Assembly: GCA_001430755.1 (NCBI GenBank)
Contig: CP013062.1
Coordinates: 1,200,001 to 1,232,000, forward strand
Length of the DNA: 32,000 nucleotides
Direction: 5' to 3'
From: Candidatus Peribacter riflensis
GTDB lineage: Bacteria > Patescibacteriota > Gracilibacteria > Peribacterales > Peribacteraceae
Program-made: the position numbers and the translations under genes
Part shown: one piece after another, positions 1-32,000 of the stretch
How the letters are laid out: every line of letters begins with the position of its first letter
Position numbering within the stretch: position 1 is the stretch's first letter
Notes under the pieces: generated by a model
The model's database searches: none
Seen by the model: the letters and a program-made list of their open reading frames with translations, nothing else
Told to the model about the DNA's origin: nothing

Positions 1-2
1 TC

Positions 3-3000
3 GACTGTCCTGTCTGCGGCGATGGCACACGCGAAGATCCGGAACAGTGCGACAATGGGGGAAACAATGGCACAGCCTGCACTCCGGCCTACAGTTCTTC
101 TTGCACCTATTGTTCCTCCAGCTGCACCAATGTCACTCTTCAGGGGCCACGGTGCGGGGATGGGACGCGCAATGGCAGCGAGCAGTGTGACGGATCATCG
201 ACCCCCTGTGGTTCAGGCAAGATGTGCAACAGTTCATGTCAATGTGTTGCCACCACTCAATCCTGTCTCTCAGAAGGCCAGAATGGGGTTTTTCCGTGGG
301 CTTCGGTCACCACGCCTCTGTCGTGTTGTACCGGATTGAATCCCACAGGAAATGTTTCCGTAATCGGTCCGGGACAGTGCGGGAATCTGGGATCGACATT
401 CGTCTGCACGTATTGTGGCGATGGTCAGTGTGAGTGGAACGAAAATGAATGTAATTGTTCCAATGATTGCGTCGCACAACCGTTCTGCGGTGACGGCACG
501 CGCAATGGCAGCGAGCAGTGCGATAACGGCGCGGCGAGCAACGGAACGGCTTGCACCCCCGCCTACGGGTCAACCTGCACGTACTGCTCTTCGAGCTGTA
601 CCAATGTCACGCTCCAGGGGCTGCGGTGCGGAGATGGTTCTTGTACCGATGGTGAGCACTGTGGCAATTGTGTCGCAGATTGCGTCTGCCAGGGAGGGTA
701 TTTCTGCGCCGTCGATCAGTGTATTCCCGATAACATGATCCGCTGCGACATCGGCGATACCTGCTTGAACAGCGCAACGTGTTGCTATGACGAGGTCTCG
801 CATGTGAATAGCTGTTGCCCCAATGTTGATTCCACCTGTTGCGGGGGGAATTGTTGCCCGACGGTCGGCGGCATGTTCCGGTGCGAAAACAACCAGTGTA
901 TTCCGGTGCAGTCTTTCTCCTCCTCCTTCTCCTCCTTCTCCTCCTTCTCTTTCATCCCGCCAACGAAGTATGGCGTGACCGTCACGGGGATCCCCGCCGT
1001 CGCCTATCCCAACAGGACCTATACAGTCACGATCAGTCTTACGAACAAGACATCCCAGCAAAAGAACTTTGCCCTGACACCCAGTAATGCTGTCATTCCA
1101 GAGCCGGGTGCGCCTCCCTTGGTGTTCAACTTCGCATCCAATCTGACGTACAGTTGCTATGGCAGCAATACGGATTACATTACCTGTGGAAACTATCCAT
1201 TGGCCCCCCAGGCAACGAAAACAATCCAGGTTTCCGCAACGACGGCGGCGAACTGCGTAGCAGGCCAGACACAGGGGCAGGGTATCTTTGCCATTCAGGT
1301 CAGTGATGGCACGCTTCAGGAGCCCTACGTGCTGCAGTCCGTGACCGAATACTGTGTGGCAGCCGGATGCGGCAACGGCGTGTGGGAGACCGGCGAGGGG
1401 TGCGAAGACGGGAACACGACGAGTGGCGACGGTTGCAGCGCCACCTGCGTGACAGAGTGTGCCGATACGGACGGCGGCAATGACCCCCTCGTGAAGGGAA
1501 CGGCGACGCATTGGGCCTGTTTTAATTCGCCTGGACAGCCCACATGCGGCCTGCGGCCATTTGCAGAGACAGACTCCTGTAATGGGTCTCTCTATACCGA
1601 GTGGTACTGCGATGCAGGAACCCGGAGAATCAAGGGCGATGGTGACAGGCAGTGCCCTGCCGGGAAGACATGCGTCGGTGGGGCGTGCGTCGTGGGGGCG
1701 TCTCCTTCCTCCTCGGTGTCTGCAGTGTGCGGCAACGGCGCCAAGGAGGGCACTGAACAGTGCGACAACGGCGCTTCGAACGGCCAAGCCTGTACTCCTT
1801 CTACTGGCGGCAGCTGCTCGTACTGTTCCGCCAGTTGCACCACTGTGACGTTGCAGGGTGACTCCTGCGGTGATGGATTGGTCAGTTCCGGCGAGGTGTG
1901 CGATACCCAAGGGCCTCCGTATCCGGGCTGCCCCGCAGGCGATACGTGCTACCAGTGCACCAATTGCGTGCGGTGCGGCAACGGCGTCATAGACCCCGGC
2001 GAAGTGTGTATGGTGATTCCTGTCTGTGACATGCCCTACTCCTGTACGAGCGGACCCACGTTCTGTCCGGCAGATTGCCCCGCATCTTCCGCAGCATCGT
2101 CCCAGTCTGCTGCTGCGGCGGCGGTGTGCGCAATCCCGGTCGGTTGGAATCCCTATGACATCGTCATAACGCCTGATGGAGCAAAGGTGTATGTCTCCGT
2201 GATGGGGGATGACACAGTCAAAGTCCTCTCCACCGCATCCAACTCGGTCATGGCGACGATTTCCGTCGGTGATGCACCGGCCCATATTGCCATGACTCCA
2301 AACGGCCAAAGAGTGTATGTACTCAATCAAGAAGGCAAAAGTGTGTCAGTGATTGCCACTGCGACCAATACGGTGATCGCAACGATTCCGATCAATAAAA
2401 CACCCAAGCGTCTTGCGATCACTCCTGATGGTGCGAAGGTGTACGTCACTGCCGGGAACAACAGTGTTTCGGTCATCTCCACGACGTCCAATACCGTGAC
2501 GGCCACGGTCACCGTAGGATCTTCCCCTCTCGGCATCGCCATCACCCCCGATGGAACGAAGGCGTATGTGGCCAATGAAATTGTTGGATCAGTTTCCATC
2601 ATCTCCACGGTATCCGATACTGTCATTGCCAGTGTGTCGGTTGGGGGTACTCCGCAAGATGTCGCCATCACCCCCAACGGCACGAAGGCGTATGTATCGA
2701 ATCATAATGGCAACACGATTGCCGTCATCTCCACCGCAACCGATACGGTTTCTGCATCAGTTTCCATTCAGAAATTTTCGTCTCGCGTTGCCATCACCCC
2801 CGACGGCACGAAGGTGTTTGCGCTGAATGATTGGGAGGCCAACCTCTCCGTCATCACCACGCAGTCCAATGGGCTCAGTGGAACCATGGATGTGGGGAGG
2901 GGGCCGACAGACATCGTCTTCACTGCAGACAGTACGAAAGCGTATGTGGTGAATAAAGCGGACGATACGGTGTCTGTGATCGCCACGGCAACGCGCAATA

Positions 3001-5144
3001 TTCTGGCCACGATCCCTGTCGGGGATTTCCCCGGAGCAATCGTTCTCTCTCCTGACGGTTCGAAGGCGTACGTGGCCAATGCCGGAGGGGGGTCCATCAC
3101 CGTCATCGACACGGCGACCAATACAGGTTGTCAGGCGGCCTCTTCTTCCTCTTCTTCCTCTGCTCTCTCATCGAAGGTACCTGCCTGCCCCGATGGCGTG
3201 CTGGATGCCGGAGAGACCTGCGAAATCGGCGTGTGTTGTGGTGCAGGCTACGTATGCGATCATGCATGCCGCTGTGTGCCCGCAGGCAGCTCCGCCTCTG
3301 CCTTCTTCGCGTCGTCCTCTTCTGCACTGATTCAGGCTTCCTCCTCCTCTGCCTTCTTCGCGTCGTCCTCTTCTGCACTGATTCAGGCTTCCTCCTCCGC
3401 TTTTCCAGCGTCGTTTTTCTCCACATCTGCCTCTTCGGCTGTTTCGGCGATGTGTGGCAATGGAAATCTGGAAGGTCTGGAACAGTGTGAAACCACTACC
3501 GCGTGTGCCAACGGGGCCATGTGCATGAATTGCTCGTGCGGAGCGGTCAGCTTCTGCGGAGATGATACGGTGGATTCCCTGCGGCAGGAGCAGTGCGAGC
3601 AGAATGCAGATTGCGCCGCCGGATACGTGTGTACGACCCAGTGTCTGTGCCAGCAGACGGGTGGCCTCTGCGGCGACGGCTCCCTTGAGGGATCCGAGGA
3701 GTGCGAGAGTGGATATTCCTGCACCGTTCCCGGTGAGATCTGCAGTAACTGTCTCTGTACGCCTCCTCCCCACTGCGGCAATCGCGTTCTGGAGTCACTG
3801 GAGGAATGCGAACTCTCTGATCCCTGTGTGGCAGATCAGGTGTGCGTGAACTGTATCTGCCGATCTCCGGCGGCGTGTGGCAATGCCGTTCTCGAGTCGG
3901 GCGAACAGTGCGAGGACGACACGCACTGCCTTACAGGGCAGAGATGTGACCGCAGCGCCTGCCGATGCGAGGGGACAGCGAGAGACTACTGCGGCGATGC
4001 CGTACTGAATCAGGGCGAAGAGTGCGAGGCGAATGCCCCCTGTACCGATGCAGGCAAGAACTGCGACTTGGATACCTGTCTCTGCGTCAGGCAGCCGGTG
4101 ATTCTGGCGTGTGGCGATGCCACACTCGATCCCGGCGAAGACTGTGATATTGGCATTGCGTGCCCTGCGGGAAGCTATTGTGTATTTCCGCGGTGCCACT
4201 GTGTCGGTGCCGTATCCCGTTGCGGAAACGGCAAGCTGGAGGGATCGGAGCGCTGCGAAATTGGAGCGGGGTGTCTACTGCCAGGCGAAGTGTGCGATCT
4301 TGCCACTTGCCAGTGTGCACCGTCTGATCCGGCGGGCAGATGCAGCAATGGCCTGCTCACCGCAGGAGAGGAATGTGAAGTGGGGGTGCCGTGCCCGTTC
4401 GGGTGGGCCTGTGATTTTCCACGTTGTGTATGCCAGAATCAACCGGTGTGTGGCAACAGCGTGCTCGACCCTGGTGAGCAGTGCGAGACGAATATGGCGT
4501 GCACGGGCGATCAGCAGACGTGCGACTTTTCGCGGTGCCGGTGCACAGGGCGCATCTACGAATGCGGTAACGGCGTGCGCGATCCCGGTGAAGAGTGTGA
4601 TGACGGCAACCGGAGTACCGGCGATGGCTGTTCAGCAGTCTGCCTGCGCGAAACCCTCTATTCACAGGTGCAGGCAGGCGCGTTCTGCGGCAACGGGATC
4701 GTCGAGAACCGTGAGGAGTGTGATGATGGCAATGTGTTCTCCGGCGACGGATGTACAGCATTCTGCACGTACGAGACACTTCCTGCTATCGATACCACGG
4801 AGCAACACCCCGCCGCCTCGGCAGAGTCTTCTCTCGCACGCTCCGCCCTCTCCTCGTCAATGATTTCTACGCCTGCACAGTTCACATCTTCAGTGGCTGC
4901 CGCCTCACAGTTCTGGTCGTCTTCGAGGCCTGCCCAGATCCCGTCTGCCCCGCTCGGAGCGATTACCATTCCCTTCCCCAAGCCTTTCAGTACTGTTGCA
5001 GTTTCTCAACTCGTCCGACCTTCACTCGTGCCCTTCATCCCTGCGCAGGCTCCCATGACGCGCACCGGCCCCGAGGTGGTGACCATCCTCTCTGCCGGGG
5101 CAGCCCTGGGGTGGGCATGGCTCCGGAGACGTCGGAAGGAATAG
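3..5144 (+). CDS. Giant secreted cysteine-rich modular surface protein (5'-partial): CGDG/EQCD Cys-rich repeats, Ig-like (CARDB/DUF11-like) segment, 8-blade YVTN-type beta-propeller, 12-repeat Cys-rich stalk, C-terminal membrane anchor
   Basis: Frame 3 is open from nt 3 (DCPVCGDGTREDPEQCDNGGNNGTACTPAY...), so the ORF-track Met at 222 is internal and the gene continues upstream. Stop is TAG at 5142-5144. The unit CG[DN]G-x5-EQCDNG..NG.AC.P....C.YC...C..VTLQG..CGDG recurs at nt 15-140, 487-640 and 1726-1860. An Ig-like segment lies at about 960-1360 (LAPQATKTIQVSAT). Propeller, stalk and anchor are listed as separate features. Confidence 0.9.
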   Translation, partial: DCPVCGDGTREDPEQCDNGGNNGTACTPAYSSSCTYCSSSCTNVTLQGPRCGDGTRNGSEQCDGSSTPCGSGKMCNSSCQCVATTQSCLSEGQNGVFPWASVTTPLSCCTGLNPTGNVSVIGPGQCGNLGSTFVCTYCGDGQCEWNENECNCSNDCVAQPFCGDGTRNGSEQCDNGAASNGTACTPAYGSTCTYCSSSCTNVTLQGLRCGDGSCTDGEHCGNCVADCVCQGGYFCAVDQCIPDNMIRCDIGDTCLNSATCCYDEVSHVNSCCPNVDSTCCGGNCCPTVGGMFRCENNQCIPVQSFSSSFSSFSSFSFIPPTKYGVTVTGIPAVAYPNRTYTVTISLTNKTSQQKNFALTPSNAVIPEPGAPPLVFNFASNLTYSCYGSNTDYITCGNYPLAPQATKTIQVSATTAANCVAGQTQGQGIFAIQVSDGTLQEPYVLQSVTEYCVAAGCGNGVWETGEGCEDGNTTSGDGCSATCVTECADTDGGNDPLVKGTATHWACFNSPGQPTCGLRPFAETDSCNGSLYTEWYCDAGTRRIKGDGDRQCPAGKTCVGGACVVGASPSSSVSAVCGNGAKEGTEQCDNGASNGQACTPSTGGSCSYCSASCTTVTLQGDSCGDGLVSSGEVCDTQGPPYPGCPAGDTCYQCTNCVRCGNGVIDPGEVCMVIPVCDMPYSCTSGPTFCPADCPASSAASSQSAAAAAVCAIPVGWNPYDIVITPDGAKVYVSVMGDDTVKVLSTASNSVMATISVGDAPAHIAMTPNGQRVYVLNQEGKSVSVIATATNTVIATIPINKTPKRLAITPDGAKVYVTAGNNSVSVISTTSNTVTATVTVGSSPLGIAITPDGTKAYVANEIVGSVSIISTVSDTVIASVSVGGTPQDVAITPNGTKAYVSNHNGNTIAVISTATDTVSASVSIQKFSSRVAITPDGTKVFALNDWEANLSVITTQSNGLSGTMDVGRGPTDIVFTADSTKAYVVNKADDTVSVIATATRNILATIPVGDFPGAIVLSPDGSKAYVANAGGGSITVIDTATNTGCQAASSSSSSSALSSKVPACPDGVLDAGETCEIGVCCGAGYVCDHACRCVPAGSSASAFFASSSSALIQASSSSAFFASSSSALIQASSSAFPASFFSTSASSAVSAMCGNGNLEGLEQCETTTACANGAMCMNCSCGAVSFCGDDTVDSLRQEQCEQNADCAAGYVCTTQCLCQQTGGLCGDGSLEGSEECESGYSCTVPGEICSNCLCTPPPHCGNRVLESLEECELSDPCVADQVCVNCICRSPAACGNAVLESGEQCEDDTHCLTGQRCDRSACRCEGTARDYCGDAVLNQGEECEANAPCTDAGKNCDLDTCLCVRQPVILACGDATLDPGEDCDIGIACPAGSYCVFPRCHCVGAVSRCGNGKLEGSERCEIGAGCLLPGEVCDLATCQCAPSDPAGRCSNGLLTAGEECEVGVPCPFGWACDFPRCVCQNQPVCGNSVLDPGEQCETNMACTGDQQTCDFSRCRCTGRIYECGNGVRDPGEECDDGNRSTGDGCSAVCLRETLYSQVQAGAFCGNGIVENREECDDGNVFSGDGCTAFCTYETLPAIDTTEQHPAASAESSLARSALSSSMISTPAQFTSSVAAASQFWSSSRPAQIPSAPLGAITIPFPKPFSTVAVSQLVRPSLVPFIPAQAPMTRTGPEVVTILSAGAALGWAWLRRRRKE
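2130..3125 (+). repeat. Eight tandem ~41-aa YVTN-family beta-propeller repeats (protein level) inside gene 1
   Basis: Eight units of the form [IV]xITPDG[AT]K[AV]YVxNxxxxxVSVIxTAT[ND]TVxAT[IV]xVGxxP, for example ITPDGAKVYVTAGNNSVSVISTTSNTVTATVTVGSSP. This matches the 40-residue YVTN repeat signature (TIGR02276) as I remember it. Confidence 0.85.
3297..3398 (+). repeat. Perfect 2 x 51-bp tandem repeat in a Ser-rich linker (SAFFASSSSALIQASSS x2)
   Basis: tctgccttcttcgcgtcgtcctcttctgcactgattcaggcttcctcctcc occurs at 3297-3347 and again, identical, at 3348-3398. Confidence 0.95.
3453..4775 (+). repeat. Array of 12 Cys-rich ~33-40-aa repeats (10 x CG[DN]xxL[ED]xGE[EQ]CE-x3-4-C-x5-7-C-x4-C-x-C, then 2 x CGNGxxxxxEECDDGNxxxGDGCxxxC Myxococcus-type/DUF4215-like)
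   Basis: Read directly from the translation. Examples are CGNAVLESGEQCEDDTHCLTGQRCDRSACRCEG and, at the end, CGNGVRDPGEECDDGNRSTGDGCSAVCLRE and CGNGIVENREECDDGNVFSGDGCTAFCTYE. The last two fit the TIGR02232 / Pfam DUF4215 consensus as I remember it. Confidence 0.85.
5055..5141 (+). other. C-terminal sorting-signal-like tail of gene 1: MTRTGP + 17 hydrophobic/small residues (EVVTILSAGAALGWAWL) + RRRRKE
   Basis: Tripartite layout at the extreme C-terminus. It is closely paralleled by the gene 7 tail (27974-28057). Confidence 0.7.
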
Positions 5145-5191: not shown

Positions 5192-8100
5192 TTAGAGCAG
5201 GAGGAAGGTCAGGATACCGATGGTGATGAAGCGGGTGCCCGGGAACGTTGCGGGAGCGTTCGGAATCGGGATGCCCTTCACGGCAAAGAGCTGGAGGTTC
5301 TGCACCCACTGTCCGAGGGTAAAGAAGGTGTTGCGGTACCTGCAAGTCAACTTGCACCGGGCGGAAGTGAGATCGCTGTTGAGCTCGCCGTCATCGCACG
5401 TTTCCCGCTCGCGTCCACCCGGGGGGGTCCTGTCCACGATGCCGTCACCGCAACGGGAGTACGTGCAATTCGTGCGGCAGAGGGCATTGGGCCTGTCATT
5501 GTTCGCCTCTCCGCCATCGCACTCTTCGCCCTCCTCGACCATGCCATTTCCGCAGCCGGCGCTGGCGCTGCTCTGCTGCGAGGAGGAACTGCTCTCTTCC
5601 GCGCTCGAGCTACTGCCTGTCTGCGGCAGGAGGCCGCAATTGGTGTACGGGGAGGGGGATTCGAAGCACTGCCCTACTCCGAAGAAGCTGCCTCCGATGA
5701 ACGGGTCTTCACAGCTCTCGCGGTCCAGATCATTGAAGCACAATCCGAAGTCCTCTCCTTCCACACAGCAATTGCCCTTCTCTTTTTCAGGCGCGGAGCT
5801 TGCACTCGCTGCGGCTGCTTCATGGGAGGAGGAACCACCTTCGTCTGCAGCACTGCTTTTCTGTCCGCCCCCGGCTGTACCGCCGCCTCCCACGCTGCTG
5901 ATCTCTGCTGCTTCCTGCGAGCTGGTTTCGGCTCCGGCGGAGGATGAGCCTTCTTCGATAGGACCGGTGAAGCATCCTGCAGCGAGACAGCGTTCTTTCC
6001 CTCCGACGATGCAGAAGACCTCCTGCGGTTCCTCATTGGCCAGCAAGTTGGCGGCGAGATCTAGGTCACCTTTCTCTTCGCAGGCGAAGAACGGCTGCCC
6101 GCCGAACAGGGCATCATTCTGCCGTCGCACACAGCAGGTGCGCTTGCCCTGCGGTTTTGTACCACAGGTATCTATTTCGCAGGCCGAGAGGCTCTCGCGG
6201 AAGCTGCCATTCATCTTCTGCTGACACTTGTCATACGTATTTGCCAGAGCGTCGCACAGATTCGCAGGTGAGACGGGATCTTGCGCGTAGCAGCAGATGC
6301 CAGTCTTTTCTTTGCACGAGATCCCCTCACAGGAGGTTCCCTCTTTCACCTCTCCATCACACTCTGCCGACAGCACGCAGGCGCCGCCGTTCTTGGGGCA
6401 GCAGGGCTTCGGTTTCTGTTCCGGCGTCGTGGGGTTGCAGGGATTGGAGGGAGCAGTGCTATCACTGGGGCAGGAGGCACCGGGCTTGAAATCGCCGTCC
6501 AGTAACTCTTCGCACATCTCGCGCGTCATTTCTTTGCCCCGAGAGGTGTCGAGGCAGAGTTCTCTGGTCGTGGCATCCGGTTTCTCTCGCGTGCAGCACG
6601 CGCCTTTCTTCTGCTGGTCGCAGAGAGTAGGAGAGCAGGCAGCCGCCGATTGTGGGGCGCCGCTCTTTGCCTCGCAGGCCTTGGTCGTGAGCATTTCACA
6701 GGTGGCACCGGGACTGCCCGGAACGCAACAAGGAGCCTGTTTTTCTGTTTGGACGGTGCAGACGATTCCTTCGCAGAAGTTCTTGTCGTTGATGGGCTTG
6801 TCTGGATCGCAGTTCTCCCGCTTCATCCCAACCGCGCACTGGCTGTTCGATATTTTGGGGCAGCAGGCCACAGGCTTCTCTTCGGGTGGACAGCCATCCG
6901 ACAGACACATGCCCTTCTTCATTTCTTTGCCCTCACCGCAACTGCCGCTCTTGGGTGCGTCGGCGCAGGAGGAGGTCTTCTTTTCAGCATCCCACGTGCA
7001 GCACGCGGGTTTGTCGGAGGGGCACTCACTGCAGGAGGCGGCGAGTCCTTTGTACTCTCCTTTGAATTGCTTGCACTCGGTCTCGGTCACAGTGAGACAC
7101 TGCAGGTTCTTTGCGGCCTCCGTGCCCGTACAGCAGATCCCCTTGGGGTCCAGGCAGGGGTTCTGGCCATTGACCAGATCACACGATGTCACGCCGCCCA
7201 CCCAGCGAACAGGGGCATAGCCCCTGTAGGCTGACTTACACTGCTCTTCTGTGATGCCCTGGGTGAAGAAGGGTGAAGTGCCTCCTTGGGCATCGCACCT
7301 CTGCCCCTGATAGGTGTAGCAGCAGATGCCCAGAGGACAGGCGGCGTTCGGGCCTTGTGATGAACATTCCTTCGCGTCGGGCCTGAAGGTGCCTTTCCCT
7401 TTTTCGCATGCCTGTTTGGAGAGGAGAGAGCACGTCCCCTCTGCGGAGCAGCAGGCACGATTACAGGAATCTTCCTTGCACTCCTTGGCGCTGAAGAGGA
7501 ACTCGCCGACGCCACACTGTTCTTTGGTGAGCTGGGAACACGTTTTTTCCTGTGCTGTGCAGCAGGGGCGACGGCAAAGAGAGCTCTTACACTCCTTTTC
7601 GTTCTCCATGTACTCGCCGCTCTGCGACGCGCAGGCGCTCTTTGAGAGGAGCTTGCATCCGTCGGCGGTGCAGCAGGCGCGCACGTTGTCACAGGGGTCG
7701 TCGAAGCAGAAGGATTGCTTCTTGAATGTGCCGCCGTAGCTCGCGCAGAGGGCCTGCGGCCGTTCGCTCTCGGCGGTCGTGAAATGATCGACGTTGAGAT
7801 CGACGCAGGGGGAGGGGTCATACTTCGTTTTGGGGTCGCAGCAGGCTCCCCAGTCGTCTACGGGCTTGCAGGGGAGGCTATCGCAGTTGCAGATCTGCTC
7901 GCATTCCTCCGTGAGCGTACCCGGCCGAAGGATGGCGGTGCCCGACATTTCCTGCTCTGCGCAGGTGACGGGGCCTCCGTAGGTACACATCCAGTTGTAT
8001 GTGTACTGTGGCGGAGAACCAACGCCAAACGGCGTCAGTACTTCACGGCAGCATGTCTTCTTCGGCGGGCAACAGCAGATGCCGCCGCCAGGCATATCTT

Positions 8101-15534: not shown

Positions 15535-15541
15535 TTGGCTC

Positions 15542-15550: not shown

Positions 15551-15605
15551 AATTTCATGCACAATCGTTTCCGCCTGGCGTGAAGATCTGCGGTACCATG
15601 TTTCC

Positions 15606-21749: not shown

Positions 21750-21754
21750 TCCGC

Positions 21755-24700: not shown

Positions 24701-27700
24701 GGAGTCTGCAATACGCGGTCGTTGAATCCTCCTCCTCCGGGATGCACAACAGAAATGGGTACCACCTGCGGCACCGCCGCCTGTTCCGGCACCTGTTCCC
24801 GTATGGTCTGCGCCAGCTCCTCCTCGAGCAGTGCCGTATCGGTATCCGTGAGCTGCGGCAACGGCATCAAAGACGGCAGTGAGCAGTGCGAAAGCCCCGC
24901 AATGCGTCAGACCATGACGACGGGTCCCCGGCCCGGATGGGTTCGACACGGCGACTTCAACGCGGATGGCTGGCAGGATCTTGTAACGGTCAATTACAGT
25001 TCGGATAATGCCAATAATTCCATTTCCGTTTTTCTCAACAGAGGCGACGGTACATTCTTTACCAAAGTCGATTACCCGTTCACACCGCAGCACCAAGTCT
25101 TATCCATAGATGTGTACGATATGAATGACGACGGAAAGGTGGATTTCATCGTGAGGAGCGGCGGAAAGCTCCGCGTTCTCAAAGGCAACGGGGACGGTAC
25201 CTTCCAGTCTCCAGCATCTTTTTTACCTGGTGATCCGTTTACCACTGGGATTGGTGCGGCATTCGGCGATTTCAACGAAGACGGGCGCACTGATGTTGTC
25301 ACCGGCATCACTCTCTCCAGCGGTGTGCAATTCTTCGCAGGGCAGGGAGGCGGGGCGTTTGCGGCCGGCGTCACTGCTGCCGGATATCCGAGCCACTTGC
25401 ACATCGTTACTGCGGATTTCGATGCCGACGGGCATACGGACGTCGCTTTTTTGCCTACCAACAGCGGGAATGATCCTTCCGATGCCACGTTCGAGGGGTC
25501 AGTACAGGTGTTGTACGGCAATGGGGCGGGAGCGTTCACCGCCGTGCCGATTCCGCAACCATCTTCCTCTGTTTCCAACATGATGGGATTTTTCGTCCGG
25601 GATGCAAACCTGGACGGACGTCCCGATCTCATCGTGCGCGGCAACGGTTCGGTTTCTACCATCTGGATCAACAATGGGAACCGCACGTTTCAGGAGAAGA
25701 CCACCAACGGGGGCCCAATGGGGGAATCACGCGCGTTCTTCGATATCGATGGCGACGGAAAAATGGATGTCATCACGAGTGCCTATTCCACCGGTATGGG
25801 CAAGCAGCTGGAGGTACACAAGGGCGTCGGGGACGGGTCGTTCCAGAACACTGCCAGTTACGTCATTCCACTGCCGCATTCCTATACCTGTCTGATGACC
25901 GCTATCATCGGCGCAGATTTCAATCGTGACGGCAAACTGGACATGGCTGTGGCCCATGGGAATGCCTGCCAGGACAACATCACAAACGCCGATGCCGTCT
26001 CGGTATTCCTGAGCCCCTGCGCACCGGGGCAAACCTGCGCGAATTGTCAGTGCAGCGGCGGCGTGCCGGTTTCTTCCTCAAGCTCCAGTCTTCCGGTGGT
26101 CGTTTCCTCCTCCAGCCATTCCTCCAGTGCCAGCATCATCGTCGGCTCCTCCTCCAGCATCGCCGTGGCCTCGTTCTGTCCGAACGGAGTCATCGAACCT
26201 GCGGAGCAGTGCGAGATCGGGTACGCCTGCCCCACAGGGTCCACGTGCAATTCCTTCTGTGTGTGTTCTGGCGGTGCGTCCTCCTCCTCTTCTATTGTTT
26301 CTTCCTTCCCCTCTTCTTCTCTCTCTTCCATTCCCTCCTCTGTGAGCTCGGCACAGAGCTCCGTTTCGATTGAGGTGTTCTGCGGCAATGCCGTGCTGGA
26401 GGGTACCGAGACGTGCGAAGCGAATCATCCCTGCCCCACGGGTCAACTCTGCATGAACTGTCTCTGCTCAACACCCAGCTACTGCGGCGACAACGTCGTC
26501 AATACGGAGGATGGCGAACAGTGCGAATCGGACCCCGACTGTTCGCAGGGTGAAGTGTGCACGTTGAATTGTCTGTGCCATGCAGGCACGGGAGGGAACT
26601 GCGGCAATGGGACGATGGAAGCGCTGGAGCAGTGCGAGCGCAACCATCCGTGCGGAGAAGGAATGCAGTGCCAGGCGTGCCTGTGCGTCGAGGTGCCGCG
26701 TTGCGGGAACAACGTCCGTGAGCGAGGGGAGCAGTGCGAGACGAACGTCTTCTGCCCTGTGGGCTCCTCGTGCGTGAATTGTCTCTGCCAGCAGGGCATG
26801 GATTGCGGAGACGGCAATCTGGCTGCGGGTGAACAGTGTGAGAAGGACAGCCACTGCCTCGAAGGGCAATTCTGCAATATGCTCGCATGCCAGTGCGAAG
26901 GAGCCGGCGCAGGGTGCGGCGACGGCATGCTGGAGGGCTCGGAACAGTGCGAACTGGGCAGCCCGTGCCAGAACTTCGAAGAAAGCTGCGATCTCTCGAC
27001 GTGCAGGTGCACGACCGATCCGATCATCTCCACGTGCGGCAATGCGATGGTGGATGCCGGCGAAGATTGCGACATCGGCATGCCCTGCGGCGAGGGAGAG
27101 ATCTGTAATTTTGCCAATTGCCACTGCATGTCGTGGGCGACGCGCTGTGGCGACGCACAGCTCTCGGAAAATGAGCAGTGCGAGATCGGTCTGCCGTGTG
27201 CCGACCTGGCGCAGGCGTGCGACCTGAGCCGGTGTGTCTGTGCGGCACTGGAACCAGACGCGAGCTGCGGCGATGGTCTGGTGGCTGTCGGCGAGGAGTG
27301 CGAGGTGGGCGTTCCCTGTCCATTCGGGTGGTCCTGCAATTACTCGCGTTGCCAGTGTCTCAATCTGCCGATCTGCGGCGATGGGTCGCAGGATGCCGGA
27401 GAACAGTGTGAGGTGACCCTGGCCTGTTCCGAGAGCGGCATGATGTGCGATTTCTCGCGCTGTCGCTGCGTCGGGAATCTCGTGGCCTGCGGGAACGGCG
27501 TGCTTGATCCCGGTGAGCAGTGTGACGACGGAGACACGTCTGCCGGTGACGGCTGCGATGCCCGGTGCCAGCGGGAATGGATCACGATGGTGGGCGGAAC
27601 ATCGATCTGCGGCAATGGTATTGTGGAGCTGCCGGAGGAGTGCGACGACAGTAATGTGCTTTCCGGAGACGGATGCTCGGGTGATTGCCGTTTGGAGATT

Positions 27701-28060
27701 GGCGGTGTGATACCTAATCTCGATACTCCCGGGTTGAGCATCTCGCCGGAACATGCTGCAGGGCCGACCATTCAGGCAGGACAGATGGCACAGGGCGGAC
27801 AAATACAGCCGGGTGGCAGTGCGGCAAGCTCGGGCGTCCCGTCACAGGGTGCCGGAACCGGGCCGGAGACCATCGTCTTCCCCGGGCAGCAGGGTGTAAT
27901 TTCGCCGTTCGCGCAGCAATCACCTGCCTACTACGGTTCCGTCATTCCTCCCTTCGCTCCGGTGAGCGGACCTGTGGGGAGCACCGGACCGGCGGCCGTT
28001 GCGGTGATCGCGGCGGGGGCGGCGAGTGGGTGGGCGTGGATGCGGAGACGGCGCAGGTGA
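21755..28060 (+). CDS. Giant (~2101 aa) surface protein: N-terminal signal-anchor, three FG-GAP/VCBS (integrin-alpha-like) beta-propellers separated by Cys-rich knots, Ser-rich linkers, 12-repeat Cys-rich stalk, C-terminal membrane anchor
   Basis: Single ORF. ATG 21755 gives MILSSLRFRQIAILLALVVTGML. An alternative GTG at 21746 overlaps the gene 6 stop as GTGA. Stop is TGA at 28058-28060, directly after RRRRR. Confidence 0.9.
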   Translation: MILSSLRFRQIAILLALVVTGMLIGNFVGSGGRWQAQVAPPAVCGNSRCELGERRTLRIPSLPIFRTENDGEVIIGHAVSYAGDTDGNGAGDLLVVGTEADYGSYDSAARKKVWLVRMEQDGRMKSYSQIAGPEWGYQYAEGGFAAGVTLVQNPQGTPVYAVSSNENSYPNYTAIRFYDQSGGAMGTSGDGITNLPHHVLAGIGDIDGNGIGDLAVANQYADTPYGMGKITVVLLEANYSVKSTHVIASEGDGFGTDDLAMGGRSITALGDLDGDGLKEIAVGNGNTGGGEMGSVYILSLRADGSVADKRLLTPGSDFTLQGELNGFANSLAGVGDWNGDGVPDLAVLSYEYVEHPPLVGSHASPVIHILLLTAQKGVAGTQSFRYADLGAFAGAAVFGNGWPLAAMPDQDGDGKMELILGVPGDGSCGGQISNPQGAVHVILSRAMTACPGDCNFCPQLSYTPARSSRYFFTPGYSTLPPLASCGNSQCNAGEMNPVVLQGADANQPYVALSLFMGTKSLDTLGDFDGDGVDDLVLGGVTQNVAGVDRYGMNEVQIVRLNSNGTQKSVTRIYEGTSGLQTGDADGSYIGAIVASIGDLDADGVRDIAVSAFPQSRTPTSYAVWILLLRSDGTVKSARKIAAGQGGFTGSIAEKFGTALEGIGDFDGDGVPDLAVGDPGYSTYNTAKEGRVHLLMLNRNGTVKSSRTLWASSFTAVPNTSDMLRASHPYIRFGSAVAFLGDVHSDGRKFLAVGGGESVWTMAFNVDGSLNTVKRTQGTAVSPAGDQDGDGKTDLIISYSPDEPAEICPECEPTYDTAWAAYYSVLTDGTLEQLWNASYGSLYLPGGGGTWWGNLPGREVATIRDLDGDQKHEFIMLDSGSFTCRGSSHVGLAWLLFSGSLGPRCEADCASVNFCAVQQQAPVCGNGTAESGEQCGEPGLSCSTGQTCQNCLCVGGTSSSQQSLDGTWVNCPAGWACNKSLDSGVCNTRSLNPPPPGCTTEMGTTCGTAACSGTCSRMVCASSSSSSAVSVSVSCGNGIKDGSEQCESPAMRQTMTTGPRPGWVRHGDFNADGWQDLVTVNYSSDNANNSISVFLNRGDGTFFTKVDYPFTPQHQVLSIDVYDMNDDGKVDFIVRSGGKLRVLKGNGDGTFQSPASFLPGDPFTTGIGAAFGDFNEDGRTDVVTGITLSSGVQFFAGQGGGAFAAGVTAAGYPSHLHIVTADFDADGHTDVAFLPTNSGNDPSDATFEGSVQVLYGNGAGAFTAVPIPQPSSSVSNMMGFFVRDANLDGRPDLIVRGNGSVSTIWINNGNRTFQEKTTNGGPMGESRAFFDIDGDGKMDVITSAYSTGMGKQLEVHKGVGDGSFQNTASYVIPLPHSYTCLMTAIIGADFNRDGKLDMAVAHGNACQDNITNADAVSVFLSPCAPGQTCANCQCSGGVPVSSSSSSLPVVVSSSSHSSSASIIVGSSSSIAVASFCPNGVIEPAEQCEIGYACPTGSTCNSFCVCSGGASSSSSIVSSFPSSSLSSIPSSVSSAQSSVSIEVFCGNAVLEGTETCEANHPCPTGQLCMNCLCSTPSYCGDNVVNTEDGEQCESDPDCSQGEVCTLNCLCHAGTGGNCGNGTMEALEQCERNHPCGEGMQCQACLCVEVPRCGNNVRERGEQCETNVFCPVGSSCVNCLCQQGMDCGDGNLAAGEQCEKDSHCLEGQFCNMLACQCEGAGAGCGDGMLEGSEQCELGSPCQNFEESCDLSTCRCTTDPIISTCGNAMVDAGEDCDIGMPCGEGEICNFANCHCMSWATRCGDAQLSENEQCEIGLPCADLAQACDLSRCVCAALEPDASCGDGLVAVGEECEVGVPCPFGWSCNYSRCQCLNLPICGDGSQDAGEQCEVTLACSESGMMCDFSRCRCVGNLVACGNGVLDPGEQCDDGDTSAGDGCDARCQREWITMVGGTSICGNGIVELPEECDDSNVLSGDGCSGDCRLEIGGVIPNLDTPGLSISPEHAAGPTIQAGQMAQGGQIQPGGSAASSGVPSQGAGTGPETIVFPGQQGVISPFAQQSPAYYGSVIPPFAPVSGPVGSTGPAAVAVIAAGAASGWAWMRRRRR
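21950..23090 (+). repeat. FG-GAP-type propeller 1 (Ca-binding-like D.DG.G..D[LI].[VI] loops)
   Basis: Loops are GDTDGNGAGDLLVVG, GDIDGNGIGDLAVAN, GDLDGDGLKEIAVGN, GDWNGDGVPDLAVLS and PDQDGDGKMELILGV. Confidence 0.8.
23260..24447 (+). repeat. FG-GAP-type propeller 2
   Basis: Loops are GDFDGDGVDDLVLGG, GDLDADGVRDIAVSA, GDFDGDGVPDLAVGD, GDVHSDGRKFLAVGG, GDQDGDGKTDLIISY and RDLDGDQKHEFIMLD. Confidence 0.8.
24925..26013 (+). repeat. FG-GAP/VCBS-type propeller 3 (seven repeats)
   Basis: Loops are GDFNADGWQDLVTVN, YDMNDDGKVDFIVRS, GDFNEDGRTDVVTGI, ADFDADGHTDVAFLP, RDANLDGRPDLIVRG, FDIDGDGKMDVITSA and ADFNRDGKLDMAVAH. Confidence 0.8.
26381..27697 (+). repeat. Array of 12 Cys-rich repeats, collinear repeat-by-repeat with 3453-4775 of gene 1
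   Basis: Repeat 7 is CGNAMVDAGEDCDIGMPCGEGEICNFANCHC here and CGDATLDPGEDCDIGIACPAGSYCVFPRCHC in gene 1. Repeat 9 is CGDGLVAVGEECEVGVPCPFGWSCNYSRCQC here and CSNGLLTAGEECEVGVPCPFGWACDFPRCVC in gene 1. The last two repeats, CGNGVLDPGEQCDDGDTSAGDGCDARCQRE and CGNGIVELPEECDDSNVLSGDGCSGDCRLE, are Myxococcus-type. Confidence 0.88.
27974..28057 (+). other. C-terminal sorting-signal-like tail of gene 7: VGSTGP + 17 hydrophobic/small residues (AAVAVIAAGAASGWAWM) + RRRRR
   Basis: The layout and the GWAW[LM]RRRR ending are the same as in the gene 1 tail (5055-5141). Confidence 0.7.
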
Positions 28061-28117: not shown

Positions 28118-31100
28118 ATGCGGCAACGTATCGCCTTTCTTCCATTCGCATTCATCCTCGTCGCCGGAGTGGCGGTGGCATATGTGCGCGATTTGCCGTT
28201 GCGTACGTTGTATGGTGATGTAAACGGGGAACCCGCACTCCTGTACTGCGATGTCAATACGGGCGACCAGTGCGATATGAGTCATGGATGCCCCGGGATC
28301 TCGGGAACGATCTGCAGAGTCTCGGGCGACTACTGTTACTGCACGACCAACCATCCGGCCTGTGATGCCGTACACACGGCGGACGAGTGCGATGCCACAC
28401 ATCCGTGTTATGAGGGAACCTGCGTGGAAGACTGGAATCAGTGCCGCTGCATGGCTACTGCCGGGTGTGGAAACGGAACCCTGGATTTCGGTGAGCAGTG
28501 CGATGGGGCAGCGGGGTCCTGCTCACCAGGCAGCGCCTGCAATCCCGGCTCCTGCACCTGCACCGGCACCGTTCCCTCCGCCGTCTGCGGCGATGGTGTC
28601 AAAGAGGGGGCGGAGCAGTGTGACACTTCGGACGCGGGTTGTCTTTCGGGGCAGCATTGCGTCGGATGCATCTGCAGTTCCGCTGTCTGCGGAGATGCAA
28701 ATGTCCAGGATGCATGGGGCGAAACGTGCGATTTTGCCAGCGTGTGTTCCTCATCCCTCTGCCACTCGTGCAAGTGCAGTACCTGCGGCAACGGAGTGAG
28801 AGATCAGGCGGAGGAGTGCGATATGAACGCGCCGACCAATACCTGTCCTACGGGGTTCTTCTGCGAGAACTGTCGGTGCGAATATTCCCGGCCGCTCGCG
28901 GAAGGAACGTGTGGCAACGCACAGATCGATCCCGGAGAAGCGTGTGATCCGGGGATAGTGAATATCGTTGATCCTTGTCCTGGCGAACCGTGGTGTGACA
29001 TGGAAACCTGCCTCTGCACGGATCAGCTCGAAATGCGTTTCTGCGGTGATGGCAACGCCGATCCGGGCGAGCAGTGCGGCGAACCGACGCTCGCGGGTAA
29101 TTGTCTCAACTGTGTCCAGTGCCGTTGTAGGACTGGCGTTGGCACTGATCCCCAGTGTGGCAATGGTCGTATCCAGCGCGGCGAGCAGTGCGAGAGCACT
29201 ATCCAGGCCATTCAGAATATTCACGTATGCCCCAGCCAGCCAGCCCAGCCCCGTTCCGCCTACTGTGTCTGGGGGGAATGTGCGTGCCGCGACATCACCA
29301 TTGCCTCCTCGTCTTCTTCAGTCGCCAATCGAGATTGCACGGATACGGATGCACTCGACACCTTTACCGAGGGCGTGACCGAAATCTGCGTAGTAGGTCA
29401 GGCCGGTGGGTGGGTATGCGTTCCACACGGTGATACCTGTGCCAATACCCAGAATGTGACCGAGTATTTCTGTTCCATGGATACGCTAGGGCAACAGAAT
29501 TACTTCTGCGCGAATGGCTGCCAGGCGGGGCGTTGTCTGACGGCGCAAGCCTCCTCCTCCACTTCCATTCACTACTCGCCCTTCGGAGCCATCACCGCTG
29601 CGGACGCATCGGGCATCACGGGATGGGTGTGCGATCGTGATAATTTTATGACACCGCTCGCAATCCGTCTGTGGATTGATTCTGTCCCGTCCGCGCAACA
29701 AAGCACTGCCGACAGGCCCAGCACCGCGGCGGCTGCCCAGTGCGATGGATACAACAATCATGGTTTCTACTTTCCGGCGACTTCCGCACTCTGCAACGGC
29801 GTCGCACACACTATTCTGGTGACGGCGGGAGGGATCGGGAGCAGGGGTGAGCTTGCCTCAACGATTGGCCCGCGTCAGCTCCTCTGCACAGCGCCCGCAT
29901 CCAGTTCTTCCTCTACAGCGTCACTGTCCTACTCGCCCTTTGGCTCCGTGGATTCTGCGAATGAATCGGTCATCACAGGGTGGGCCTGTGACCGTGATAA
30001 TTTTGCGACTGCGCTCACGGTGTATCTGTGGGTGGATTCCGTCCCGACTCCCCTGACATGGATCACTGCGAATACGGTCAGTCCCGTGGGATCACCGTAT
30101 TGCGGTGGGTACCTCAGTCACGGCTTCTCCTTCCAGACGCCTGCCTCGCTCTGCGATGGAGTGCAGCATACCGTAGCGGTCACGGCTGCCAACATCGGCA
30201 GCAGAGGAACAGATGTGCCTATCGGTTCATACGCGCTCACCTGCGGTGGATCGTCTTCTTCCCATTCTTCCTCTTCAGGAGTCGCCTCTCCGCCCACGGG
30301 GTGGTTCGACTACGCCACATGCGAGCGGATGGAGGGCTGGTCCTGCGATCTGGATGCCAAGACGCAGTACGTGACGGTGGATATTTACGCCAACGGCCCC
30401 AAGGGGCAGGGAACGAAAGTACTGACAACAACCGCGAACACGGATCGTGCGGCGATTGTCGGGGAAATCTGCGGCAATGGACCTTCCAATCACGGATTCA
30501 ATATTCCGCTTCCTGCATCACTCAAAGATGGCCAGCCCCACACCCTCTATGCGTATGCACGCGACATCGTCGGCGGAGCGGCCGATGTCCTCCTCTTCAT
30601 GGGAACCGAAGCGCCGTACGTAACGCCGAAAACGGTGACATGCGCTGCTCCCGTCTCCTCTTCCTCTTCCTCTTCCTCTTCATCGCAATCTTCCACGCAC
30701 CGGGACTGCCTGGGCCCCGGAGGCACCATGATTTCAGTGCCCATTGATCAGCCCTGCCCCCCGTTATCTTCCAGTTCCTCTTCGCGCTCCTCCATACCGC
30801 AGGTCGTTCATCCTCCCGTGGGACAATTCGATACTGCGACCTGCCAGTCGCTGGATGGATGGGCGTGTGATGAAGATAATTTTTTGACGAAACTTACCAT
30901 TGATATCTACATGGACGGACCGGTAGGAGTGGGGACAAAAGTGCTGACGACGGTTGCAGATGATCCGAGCAGCATCGGCATTTTGGAGCTGTGCGGCAAT
31001 CAGCCCAACCACGGATTCACTGTTGCCCCGCCGTTATCGCTCAAAGATGGCCAGCCCCACACCCTCTATGCGTATGCCCGCGATGTGGGCGGCGGGATGG

Positions 31101-32000
31101 GCGGGGGGACGGGAGTTTTGCTGTGGATGGGCCCTCCCCCGTATACGACGCCATACAGTATAGTGTGCACGGCCGGAGGCTCTTCCAGTTCTTCAGCAGG
31201 CGCCGTCTGCGGCAATAATATCAAAGAGGCTGGTGAGCAATGCGATGGGATCGTTGCGTGCTTACAACCAAACTGCATTCCAGGGGGCACCTGTCCGCAT
31301 TTCCAGTGCAATACGTCTACGTGTCTCTGCTACGTATCCCCGTCTTCTTCTTCAGCCGCATCATCACAGGTGTCCTTGCCGATCAGCGCGCTCTGCGGAA
31401 ACGGCGTGATCAATCCCCCCGAGGAGTGCGATGACCAGAATGTGCGTGCCGGCGATGGGTGCAATGCATTCTGCCAGCGCGAGCTTGGGTGGACCTGCGT
31501 CGAAATTCCCAGCATGTGTTCAACGCTCTGCGGAGACGGTATCCGCGCGGGTGTGGAACAGTGTGATGACGGCAATCTGTTCGACGGCGACGGCTGCTCG
31601 CGGAACTGCTGGATTGAACGACAGACGTCGGCCTCGTCTTCTACGGGTGTGCAGACATCCTCTATGGCACCGGCGCTGCCGCTCTGCGGCAACGGGAGCA
31701 TAGAAGGGAGCGAAGAATGCGAAGTGCGCGTGCGATGCGCGGACGGGAGCGCCTGTCAGAGCTGCAGGTGCATCTCGACGCAGCGTTGCGGGGATGGGCG
31801 GGTGGAGCAGCCCGAACAGTGCGATGCCAATTACCCGTGCCCCAATGGCGGCTTCTGCACGATTTCCTGCATATGCACGCAGCCATCCCTCTCCTCCTCA
31901 TCATCTTCTGCCGGCGAGCCGCCTCTTGTTGGTTGCGGAAACGGCCAGATGGAAGGAACGGAAGAGTGCGAAGTGCGCGTTTCCTGCAATCAGCCCGGTG
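28118..32000 (+). CDS. Large secreted cysteine-rich modular protein (3'-partial, at least 1294 aa): signal-anchor, Cys-rich CG[DN]G repeats, CxDTD module, four tandem copies of an unassigned GW.CD.DNF/HGF domain, further Cys-rich repeats
   Basis: This ORF is not in the ORF track because frame 2 stays open to the window end. I translated it by hand. ATG 28118 gives MRQRIAFLPFAFILVAGVAVAYVRDL (hydrophobic N-terminus). Downstream come CGNGTLDFGEQCDG..., CGDGVKEGAEQCDT..., CGNGVRDQAEECDM..., then near the end CGNGVINPPEECDDQNVRAGDGCNAFCQRE, CGDGIRAGVEQCDDGNLFDGDGCSRNCWIE and CGNGQMEGTEECEVRVSC at the window edge. All other plus-strand ORFs here are short and lie in frames 1 or 3. Confidence 0.85.
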   Translation, partial: MRQRIAFLPFAFILVAGVAVAYVRDLPLRTLYGDVNGEPALLYCDVNTGDQCDMSHGCPGISGTICRVSGDYCYCTTNHPACDAVHTADECDATHPCYEGTCVEDWNQCRCMATAGCGNGTLDFGEQCDGAAGSCSPGSACNPGSCTCTGTVPSAVCGDGVKEGAEQCDTSDAGCLSGQHCVGCICSSAVCGDANVQDAWGETCDFASVCSSSLCHSCKCSTCGNGVRDQAEECDMNAPTNTCPTGFFCENCRCEYSRPLAEGTCGNAQIDPGEACDPGIVNIVDPCPGEPWCDMETCLCTDQLEMRFCGDGNADPGEQCGEPTLAGNCLNCVQCRCRTGVGTDPQCGNGRIQRGEQCESTIQAIQNIHVCPSQPAQPRSAYCVWGECACRDITIASSSSSVANRDCTDTDALDTFTEGVTEICVVGQAGGWVCVPHGDTCANTQNVTEYFCSMDTLGQQNYFCANGCQAGRCLTAQASSSTSIHYSPFGAITAADASGITGWVCDRDNFMTPLAIRLWIDSVPSAQQSTADRPSTAAAAQCDGYNNHGFYFPATSALCNGVAHTILVTAGGIGSRGELASTIGPRQLLCTAPASSSSSTASLSYSPFGSVDSANESVITGWACDRDNFATALTVYLWVDSVPTPLTWITANTVSPVGSPYCGGYLSHGFSFQTPASLCDGVQHTVAVTAANIGSRGTDVPIGSYALTCGGSSSSHSSSSGVASPPTGWFDYATCERMEGWSCDLDAKTQYVTVDIYANGPKGQGTKVLTTTANTDRAAIVGEICGNGPSNHGFNIPLPASLKDGQPHTLYAYARDIVGGAADVLLFMGTEAPYVTPKTVTCAAPVSSSSSSSSSSQSSTHRDCLGPGGTMISVPIDQPCPPLSSSSSSRSSIPQVVHPPVGQFDTATCQSLDGWACDEDNFLTKLTIDIYMDGPVGVGTKVLTTVADDPSSIGILELCGNQPNHGFTVAPPLSLKDGQPHTLYAYARDVGGGMGGGTGVLLWMGPPPYTTPYSIVCTAGGSSSSSAGAVCGNNIKEAGEQCDGIVACLQPNCIPGGTCPHFQCNTSTCLCYVSPSSSSAASSQVSLPISALCGNGVINPPEECDDQNVRAGDGCNAFCQRELGWTCVEIPSMCSTLCGDGIRAGVEQCDDGNLFDGDGCSRNCWIERQTSASSSTGVQTSSMAPALPLCGNGSIEGSEECEVRVRCADGSACQSCRCISTQRCGDGRVEQPEQCDANYPCPNGGFCTISCICTQPSLSSSSSSAGEPPLVGCGNGQMEGTEECEVRVSCNQPG
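29566..31180 (+). repeat. Four tandem copies (two subtypes) of an unassigned ~110-125-aa domain separated by Ser-rich linkers
   Basis: Copies 1 and 2 begin YSPFG[AS][IV]..A[DN].S.ITGW[VA]CDRDNF and continue ...C.GY..HGF.F..P[AT]S.LC[DN]GV.HT[IV].VTA..IGSRG. Copies 3 and 4 begin G[WQ]FD.ATC....GW[SA]CD.D and continue ...GTKVLTT.A...........CGN.P.NHGF.[IV]..P.SLKDGQPHTLYAYARD. The DNA ctcaaagatggccagccccacaccctctatgcgtatgc is identical at 30521 and 31040, an offset of 519 nt. Confidence 0.85.

Follow-up and report, generated by a model that had tools for sequence, protein, structure and literature searches.

Why would a bacterium with a genome of 1.25 Mb carry six giant genes almost side by side? 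The question is raised by a 32,000-nucleotide stretch of Candidatus Peribacter riflensis (contig CP013062.1, positions 1,200,001 to 1,232,000; hereafter the window), in which six open reading frames (ORFs) for giant cysteine-rich proteins, here called G1 to G6, add up to approximately 29.3 kb. Computed from the ORF coordinates, they cover 91.5% of the window, close to the nine-tenths estimated in an initial annotation made from the sequence alone, which also noted that two of them run off its edges. Judging by the types of domains they carry, these proteins probably mediate the recognition of host cells or particles and the attachment to them. This reading is favored because the domains detected are of binding types only, because the ligand-binding parts turn over fast between close relatives, and because the organism is a metabolically dependent member of the Candidate Phyla Radiation (CPR).

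Relation to the published gene cluster

The window is 99.92% identical to approximately positions 1,200,087-1,232,086 of the closed Ca. Peribacter riflensis genome CP013064.1 (1,248,112 bp). Exact-sequence searches also locate the genes on many assemblies from the Rifle aquifer. Five closed genomes of this organism were described by Anantharaman et al. 2016 (PeerJ 4:e1607; PMC4736985), and G1 to G6 correspond to ORFs 1089-1091 and 1094-1096 of a 14-gene cluster reported there, with lengths, cysteine counts and gene order in agreement (Tables S2 and S4). In Table S4, ORFs 1089, 1090, 1091, 1094, 1095 and 1096 have 1968, 2084, 1338, 1215, 2101 and 1595 amino acids, respectively, and 238 Cys are counted in ORF 1090; a single offset of 1,200,086 converts the coordinates of Table S2 into window positions. 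The gene coordinates used here follow the published gene calls. Past the window, ORFs 1097-1102 extend the cluster to where the linearised genome record ends, which makes about 49 kb in total, or about 4% of the genome. The window is, then, the left two-thirds of a native giant surface-protein gene cluster of approximately 49 kb in Candidatus Peribacter riflensis (class Peribacteria, Peregrinibacteria, CPR).

The 2016 authors described the cluster proteins as large and Cys-rich, with signal peptides in most of them, with annotations including FG-GAP and lactonase, and with Cys-rich repeats of Myxococcus as weakly similar sequences. They proposed that these are extracellular proteins that function in attachment, perhaps to other cells, and varying among strains, which were reported to differ by insertions and deletions in large proteins (PMC4736985). 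The same DNA and the same proposal are thus in the published account: the locus and its interpretation have been known since 2016, our finding is a rediscovery, and the novelty implied by the initial annotation falls away. In the parts of that account devoted to the cluster, gene labels stay at the KEGG level (lactonase, RCC1, ITFG1, pappalysin and 'hypothetical'), and we found there no GACC module, no C-terminal signals, no pattern of chassis and heads and no mechanism of repeat-unit variation, all of which are treated below. A literature search found no later functional work on the cluster proteins. The added value of the present analysis lies in the parts that had no name, namely the GACC family, perhaps related to the iRhom homology domain (IRHD), the C-terminal signal of Peribacteria, and the pattern of conserved chassis and exchangeable heads.

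Binding-type heads and cysteine-rich stalks in G1, G4, G5 and G6

Four of the giants, all encoded on the plus strand, join known ligand-binding folds to cysteine-rich repeats. G1 (ORF 1089; <3-5144; 9.3% Cys) is present in the window with its C-terminal 1713 residues, out of 1968 in full. It matches the hidden Markov model (HMM) TIGR02276 of the YVTN family (E = 1.7e-64, 213.5 bits, seven stretches within residues ~700-1050 of the window frame), as well as Lactonase/YncE propeller models, and has a seven-bladed YVTN beta-propeller at approximately 2100-3152. An immunoglobulin (Ig)-like segment is also present, together with a Ser-rich linker holding a 51-nucleotide tandem repeat (3290-3414), a stalk of about 12 CGNG repeats of the Cys-rich CGNG/TIGR02232 kind (~3453-4802), and a C-terminal sorting-type signal (5016-5141). 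G4 (ORF 1094; 18102-21749; 1215 residues, 5.8% Cys) carries an RCC1 propeller at about 18249-19001 (Pfam RCC1_2, 6e-41, 137.6 bits, six stretches), followed by a DUF11 Ig-like domain at about 19239-19532 (Pfam, 6e-6, 27.0 bits against a cut-off of 24.6) and five CGNG repeats at about 21054-21701. In G5 (ORF 1095; 21755-28060; 2101 residues, 5.2% Cys), FG-GAP/VCBS repeats typical of integrin-like propellers are numerous (Pfam FG-GAP_3, 4e-59, 197.5 bits, ten stretches; Pfam FG-GAP, 2e-40, 136.5 bits); its stalk consists of about 12 CGNG/TIGR02232 repeats (~26381-27715), and a sorting-type signal lies at its C-terminus (27932-28057).

G6 (ORF 1096; 28118->32000; 8.7% Cys), of which the first 1294 of 1595 residues are in the window, is composed of a signal peptide, seven CGNG repeats, a CxDTD domain, four Ig-like copies and further CGNG/TIGR02232 repeats, in that order. 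The four tandem copies (29573-31177) belong to an unnamed domain of 110-120 amino acids, with invariant G-W-x-C-D-x-D and H-G-F motifs, which is modeled as an Ig-like beta-sandwich with a predicted local distance difference test (pLDDT) score of 78. Its matches in the PDB were non-specific (nanobody or fibronectin type III, E > 1e-3), and its 15 homologues found were mostly hypothetical proteins, the named ones coming from Acidobacteria.

The stalks of these four proteins are built from related units. TIGR02232 (DUF4215) scored 89.4, 68.0 and 102.7 bits in G1, G5 and G6, respectively, against a cut-off of 20.8, while repeats of this type in G4 were seen by regular expression or by eye only. 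A regular expression for the unit CGNG...E.C[DE]...C...C.C, approximately 36-40 amino acids long, found about 20, 5, 14 and 13 copies in G1, G4, G5 and G6, most of them below HMM detection, and a CxD[ST]DGG domain was found in the same way in G1, G4 (as CxDSDGG) and G6. Building blocks are therefore shared among the genes, as the initial annotation had proposed when it spoke of shuffling, and the families that it had named by eye (YVTN, RCC1, FG-GAP/VCBS, DUF11 and TIGR02232/DUF4215) were all recovered by the HMMs.

No catalytic, toxin, peptidase, nuclease or glycoside-hydrolase domain was found in the giants with Pfam and NCBIfam, and the folds detected are all of binding type. This bears on the idea that the cluster encodes a secreted offensive or predatory toolkit, in which the giants would be delivered to other cells as polymorphic toxins or lytic enzymes. 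Large, variable proteins that appear to be exported, in an organism presumed to be a symbiont or a parasite, would suit such a toolkit, and so would about 400 residues of G4, among other stretches, to which no family could be assigned. Nevertheless, besides the lack of such domains in those databases, PADLOC was blank for G4, small ORFs resembling immunity genes are absent, and the C-terminal membrane anchors described below argue for retention on the producing cell, which makes delivery to other cells very improbable. For the G4 region itself (residues 590-985; 19869-21056), neither Pfam nor the PDB sequences gave a match, and the syntenic loci of relatives have nothing equivalent; it is the only sizeable stretch in which an enzymatic or a novel binding domain could be hidden.

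The six-cysteine GACC module of G2 and G3

The remaining giants, G2 (ORF 1090; 5192-11446, minus strand; 2084 residues) and its paralogue G3 (ORF 1091; 11542-15558, minus strand; 1338 residues), have no Pfam family, and NCBIfam gave nothing for G2 and only a sub-cut-off match to NF033662 for G3. Cys makes up 9.5% of G3 and 11.4% of G2 (238 residues), in line with the one residue in ten estimated by eye for the latter. Both proteins are mainly arrays of a module of about 40 amino acids with six Cys, here named GACC after its consensus xGACC-x3-9-C-x6-8-C-x8-14-C-x2-5-C, in which G-x-[FY] precedes the fifth Cys. By parsing CC-delimited segments, approximately 35 copies were counted in G2 (array at about 5966-11290, minus strand) and 19 in G3 (12628-15384, minus strand, with long Ser-rich linkers), and none of the six Cys varies in any of the 39 window copies aligned. 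Near the C-terminus each protein also has two TIGR02232-like repeats, none above the cut-off. With AlphaFold2, the alignment of window copies yielded a compact beta-beta-alpha-beta(-alpha) fold with a mean pLDDT of 94.

A fixed arrangement of this kind also speaks to whether the Cys could stay reduced and bind metals or metalloids, sequestering or detoxifying Fe, Zn, As, Se or U from the aquifer water. The high Cys content, up to the figure given for G2, and the source aquifer, which is metal-contaminated and mostly anoxic (PMC4736985), would fit this explanation. However, the six-Cys pattern with its conserved spacing and its compact, confidently predicted fold points to disulfides, as do the curation of TIGR02232 as a disulfide repeat in NCBIfam and the presence of Dsb genes; moreover, His/Cys metal-site motifs are absent and the composition is not metallothionein-like. 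We regard metal binding as a very doubtful explanation.

A search with full-length G2 was swamped by low-complexity words and returned 10 matches, and an exhaustive search with a profile of the module was used instead. Against 1.84 billion cluster representatives, this profile matched 2,747 at E<=1e-3, 963 at E<=1e-10 and 117 at E<=1e-30, and among the 150 best matches listed most proteins had approximately 8-36 copies. Neither the window copies nor the best foreign matches have a Pfam or NCBIfam model for the module. Since it recurs in thousands of representatives and has no model, GACC is, as far as sequence can tell, a common extracellular repeat that has so far had no name. The named matches come from Phycisphaerae (Planctomycetota), Eisenbacteria and Peribacteraceae, and arrays like those of G2 and G3 occur in many metagenomic bacteria as well. 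Many of the foreign proteins end in dockerin-like, PEP-CTERM-like or type IX secretion system (T9SS)/FlgD-Ig-like tails, whereas G2 and G3 have an N-terminal signal and a hydrophobic tail of their own, found here only in other Peribacteraceae-type sequences.

Among PDB sequences, the only ones matched by the GACC profile were iRhom1 and iRhom2 (8snl, 9xy4), within the Cys-rich IRHD, a domain described in the iRhom literature as unique among known domains. A profile made only of window copies gave an E value of 0.015, and one of 116 sequences gave 1.4e-4 as well as a second, partial match further upstream in the chain (residues 102-122). The main match spans the full module, with the six Cys and also the T-x-x-E-x-C and G-x-F positions in alignment, and when the iRhom segment was shuffled with its Cys fixed, the real score was reached in 0 of 2000 and 0 of 5000 trials. 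Tentatively, we propose that GACC is a widespread, unannotated bacterial extracellular domain homologous to the two Cys-rich sub-modules of the IRHD. The latter is an extracellular, disulfide-rich, protein-binding domain of eukaryotic inactive rhomboids; if the homology is real, the IRHD gains a bacterial relative and a protein-binding role is suggested for G2 and G3. In that case the unnamed domain, already seen in thousands of proteins of bacteria, would extend to the iRhoms.

At fixed positions of the GACC modules, N-x-S/T sequons (NNTT, NQT, NET) were observed on the minus strand in 9764-10372 and 13021-14385. They are commoner than in shuffled sequence (z = 3.0 for G2 and 4.8 for G3), an excess that is inflated by the paralogous repeats. 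An oligosaccharyltransferase term is absent from the published gene table, which lists an O-antigen-ligase-like protein. Glycosylation of the GACC modules is a speculative possibility that the sequons suggest.

Putative export and anchoring signals

All six giants begin with a hydrophobic segment, as the initial reading had it: the best 17-residue Kyte-Doolittle window reaches 1.9-2.6 in them and 0.4-0.9 in the two cytoplasmic genes of the window, and one to three Lys/Arg precede the segment in every case. Whole-protein Cys counts are even. The giants look exported because they combine these signal-like segments at the N-terminus with membrane or sorting signals at the C-terminus and with an even number of Cys (six) per module.

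The C-terminal tails of G1, G5, G6 and ORF 1097 share the pattern P-[VIA]-[GAT]-x-T-G-P-[AE]-x-V-x-[VL]-[IVM]-[AS]-A-G-A-A-x-G-[WFL]-A-W-x-(R/K)4-5. For G6 and ORF 1097 the tail lies outside the window (L086, 21050-21148 and 25050-25143, respectively). The four tails have Kyte-Doolittle values of 1.4-1.6 over 17 residues and five Lys/Arg among their last 10 residues. The same tail ends 11 further giant Cys-rich ORFs of other Peribacteria genomes (giants of L006-L010, L013, L019, L046, L048 and L057), and in the alignment of all 15 proteins the P, G and P of the motif and two Gly of the helix are invariant, T being nearly so. Isolated tails only graze the models for MYXO-CTERM, PEP-CTERM and IPTL-CTERM. 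For PEP-CTERM (TIGR02595), those of G1 and G5 reach 14.3 bits, below the cut-off of 16; for MYXO-CTERM (TIGR03382/TIGR03901), that of G1 reaches 18.2 bits against the TIGR03382 cut-off of 15.85, and that of G5 stays below with 10.9 and 11.7. The MYXO-CTERM signature is a Gly-Cys ahead of the helix; none of the 15 tails has a Cys in front of it. A few tails read I-A-R-T-G, resembling LAXTG, and no LPXTG-anchor model was among the NCBIfam matches of the tails at E<=10.

In the published gene table, entries for DsbB, for two DsbA-like genes and, as ORFs 264 and 350, for two sortase-A-like genes are found elsewhere in the genome (PMC4736985); the Dsb-type oxidoreductases that the initial annotation had advised looking for are thus present. 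The word 'exosortase' does not occur in the published annotation table, which is the outcome of an annotation-word search and not of a homology search. It is conceivable, though we hold it only tentatively, that the P-x-x-x-T-G-P motif with its transmembrane helix and Arg tail is a lineage-specific signal processed by a sortase-like enzyme of CPR bacteria. The conserved signal could be used for listing the whole surface proteome.

G2 and G3 end differently, with a conserved ...GEW...L.LY...G.P.PNAP... followed by a hydrophobic stretch that has no basic tail; in G2 this tail and the two TIGR02232-like repeats occupy 5195-5578 (minus strand). Tails of this type are conserved in P0002, P0003, P0005 and P0130. 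Strikingly conserved, too, is the N-terminus common to both proteins, FGIV.QM..LRFAELALATFLTLVV, which recurs, as the tail does, in Peribacteraceae-type sequences. A C-terminal anchor is missing from G4, whose stop codon overlaps or directly adjoins the start of G5.

Between species, an unusual degree of conservation was seen in the signal-peptide regions (G2/G3 type, 66-76% identity; G4 type, 52-67%), and the mature parts behind them are replaced. The regions concerned are 11370-11446 of G2 and 15480-15558 of G3 on the minus strand, and 18102-18230 of G4 on the plus strand. Their conservation hints at a specialised export signal or at an anchor for recombination.

Exchange of heads between species and variation within the population

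The arrangement of the locus was compared among Peribacteria with the housekeeping gene H2 as anchor. H2 and its neighbor H1 are embedded between G3 and G4, and both are described further below. In the loci L006-L010, from the closest species, giant Cys-rich genes lie on both sides of these two housekeeping genes, arranged as in the window, and in more distant Peribacteria this is patchy; the search for syntenic loci that had been suggested at the outset thus found the island at the same place in the closest Peribacteraceae genomes. In L006-L010, the beta-CASP protein encoded by H2 is 79-85% identical and the pseudouridine synthase encoded by H1 71-77%. Alignment of the giants is limited to their signal peptides (52-76%) and to the stalk and anchor at the C-terminus (53-63%), the part in between being replaced. 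The L006 gene at the position of G4 has kept the G4 signal peptide and carries a YVTN propeller that is 48% identical to that of G1, and L010 lacks genes of the G2/G3 type altogether. Our reading of these sequence comparisons is that the parts for export, stalk and anchoring make up a conserved chassis, which would receive exchangeable heads.

These data qualify the view that the island is core genome. Its composition is native, with a G+C content of 0.55-0.65 across the whole window, in giants and housekeeping genes alike, and its position is conserved; moreover, HMM scans of the eight window genes found no integrase or transposase and ARAGORN found no tRNA in the window, so that the absence of such elements noted initially stands. 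The gene content and the heads, however, change even between genomes whose housekeeping neighbor is 81-85% identical.

Rapid replacement of heads also speaks against the main rival of the recognition reading, in which the giants are a structural coat of the envelope, either a brush or an S-layer-like shell, hydrated, glycosylated and cross-linked by disulfides, that protects a very small cell without an outer membrane and recognizes no specific ligand. The long Ser-rich linkers, the excess of sequons in G2 and G3, and the share of the genome given to the cluster would agree with such a coat, as would the investment of the organism in amino-sugar and polyprenol-sugar pathways, reported as strong in this genome (PMC4736985), and its O-antigen-ligase-like gene. 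Yet propellers and FG-GAP and RCC1 heads are typical ligand-binding modules, and their fast swapping between close relatives is expected of recognition molecules and not of a generic coat. Moreover, the sequon excess is overstated, as explained above, and S-layer genes have been reported separately in the genome (PMC4736985). The coat is, in our opinion, an unlikely explanation, albeit less so than metal binding or toxin delivery.

Within the Rifle population, sequences are otherwise identical and differ in three ways. Firstly, the copy number of the 51-nucleotide unit in the Ser-rich linker of G1 varies, L090 encoding 1985 instead of 1968 amino acids. Secondly, a 450-nucleotide tandem duplication in G3 (13510-14389, minus strand), whose units hold three GACC modules each and are about 88% identical, is a site of strain difference: L004 lacks one unit and encodes 1188 instead of 1338 amino acids. 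Thirdly, in L001, L002 and L005 eight single-nucleotide polymorphisms (SNPs) are exchanged reciprocally between the two G3 units. The differences in repeat number fit the published insertions and deletions in large proteins of these strains. Two other apparent differences were rejected: an interruption of G1 in L091 (564 amino acids plus two odd ORFs) is a gap of 100 N with antisense ORFs, and dense SNPs at the end of L005 mark a chimeric contig end and not variation.

Internal DNA repeats of 51, 111, 162 and 450 nucleotides occur in the window, and assemblies disagree within repeats, which is what could be expected if the giants were decaying repetitive DNA, that is, pseudogenes or an artefact of repeat assembly. 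This explanation is effectively refuted. The genes are not pseudogenes because they are intact, with no frameshift, in more than 20 independent assemblies; frames of 1215-2101 amino acids are uninterrupted and identical in many independent assemblies, closed genomes among them, orthologous giants exist in other species, and the run of N in L091 accounts for the sole apparent disruption.

A proposed mechanism of recognition and attachment

Taking these observations together, the recognition reading can be put as follows. The giants would be exported through Sec by their N-terminal signals and oxidized outside the cytoplasm by the DsbB/DsbA-like system into strings of three-disulfide modules, of the CGNG/TIGR02232 type in G1, G4, G5 and G6 and of the GACC type in G2 and G3. 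With the Ser-rich and probably glycosylated linkers, these modules may form a stiff stalk that presents the putative ligand-binding heads, namely the YVTN, RCC1 and FG-GAP beta-propellers and the Ig-like sandwiches, away from the cell. G1, G5 and G6 would be retained by their P-x-x-x-T-G-P motif, Gly/Ala-rich transmembrane helix and four to five Arg/Lys, a layout of sortase or exosortase signals that may be cleaved, and G2 and G3 by their conserved hydrophobic tail, while the anchorless G4 probably rides on G5. Such an array would most likely contact and recognize host cells or particles, and would diversify by the exchange of heads and by gain and loss of repeat units. The attachment or recognition apparatus suggested by the initial annotation finds backing in the exported look of the proteins and in their binding-type domains; the function itself we infer from the types of domains.

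Several points weigh against this reading. Export is called from hydropathy only, and the aquifer is largely anoxic, which makes the extent of disulfide formation an assumption. The tail motif is not LPXTG, its Pro being at -4 from the Thr and not at -2, and full-length scans gave the tail no score above the cut-off of a curated sorting-domain model. A crude screen for sortase active-site motifs, covering 0.88 Mb of Peribacteria loci, found no sortase or exosortase near the giants and yielded only spurious antisense ORFs. Lastly, some of the differences in repeat number could be assembly collapse and not true strain differences.

The proposed design has parallels in better-known systems. Gram-positive LPXTG/sortase adhesins, including serine-rich repeat proteins, are laid out in the same way, with a binding head behind the signal peptide, then a long, repetitive stalk rich in Ser, and at the C-terminus a motif, a hydrophobic helix and a basic tail, and sortase-like genes are listed for Ca. 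P. riflensis as well. The Peribacter giants differ in having P-x-x-x-T-G-P instead of LPXTG, and disulfide-rich stalks, which are unusual for adhesins of Firmicutes. Myxococcus proteins with TIGR02232/DUF4215, often MYXO-CTERM-tailed, share with G1, G5 and G6 the acidic double-disulfide repeat; they are likewise large, secreted and modular, with a transmembrane helix and an Arg cluster at the C-terminus. Unlike them, the giants belong to a CPR bacterium without an outer membrane and their tails lack the Gly-Cys signature, while G2 and G3 use another module. Finally, integrin-alpha-like FG-GAP/VCBS and YVTN/RCC1 propeller proteins are found on the surface of bacteria, and G5, G1 and G4 carry such propellers with strong HMM scores; in Peribacter, however, the propellers sit as heads on stalks of Cys repeats, and a single island brings them together, with exchange between orthologous positions. 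For the means by which cells of the CPR (Patescibacteria) recognize and hold their hosts, the giants are obvious candidates in Peribacteria.

Neighboring genes and intergenic regions

The two embedded housekeeping genes were identified by HMM matches, and both are on the plus strand. H1 (15606-16430) encodes a pseudouridine synthase of the RluB/RluF/RsuA type, and H2 (16517-17980) a beta-CASP metallo-beta-lactamase RNase (K07576). The best NCBIfam matches of H2 were type VII CRISPR Cas14 (319 bits, cut-off 800) and archaeal aCPSF1 (255 bits, cut-off 580), ahead of RNase J. PADLOC gave only a weak LmuA-like match for H2, which was judged not meaningful. Throughout Peribacteria, H2 adjoins giants, with 57-85% identity, and relatives with 33-41% identity exist in Actinomycetota, Saccharibacteria and others; its nearest relatives in GTDB species genomes all belong to Candidatus Peribacteria/Peregrinibacteria.

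At gathering thresholds, Rfam detected no RNA family in the window. In a scan for sigma-70 promoters and terminators between 5000 and 18300, the intergenic regions were empty, and promoter-like sites were rarer than in shuffled sequences. Directly upstream of G1 and outside the window lies ORF 1088, of 126-177 amino acids (L089, 22213-22593; L090, 22264-22794), in which CGNG-type Cys repeats follow a hydrophobic N-terminus. As ORF 1088 is also of the CGNG type, the cluster begins one gene earlier, beside the 23S rRNA region.

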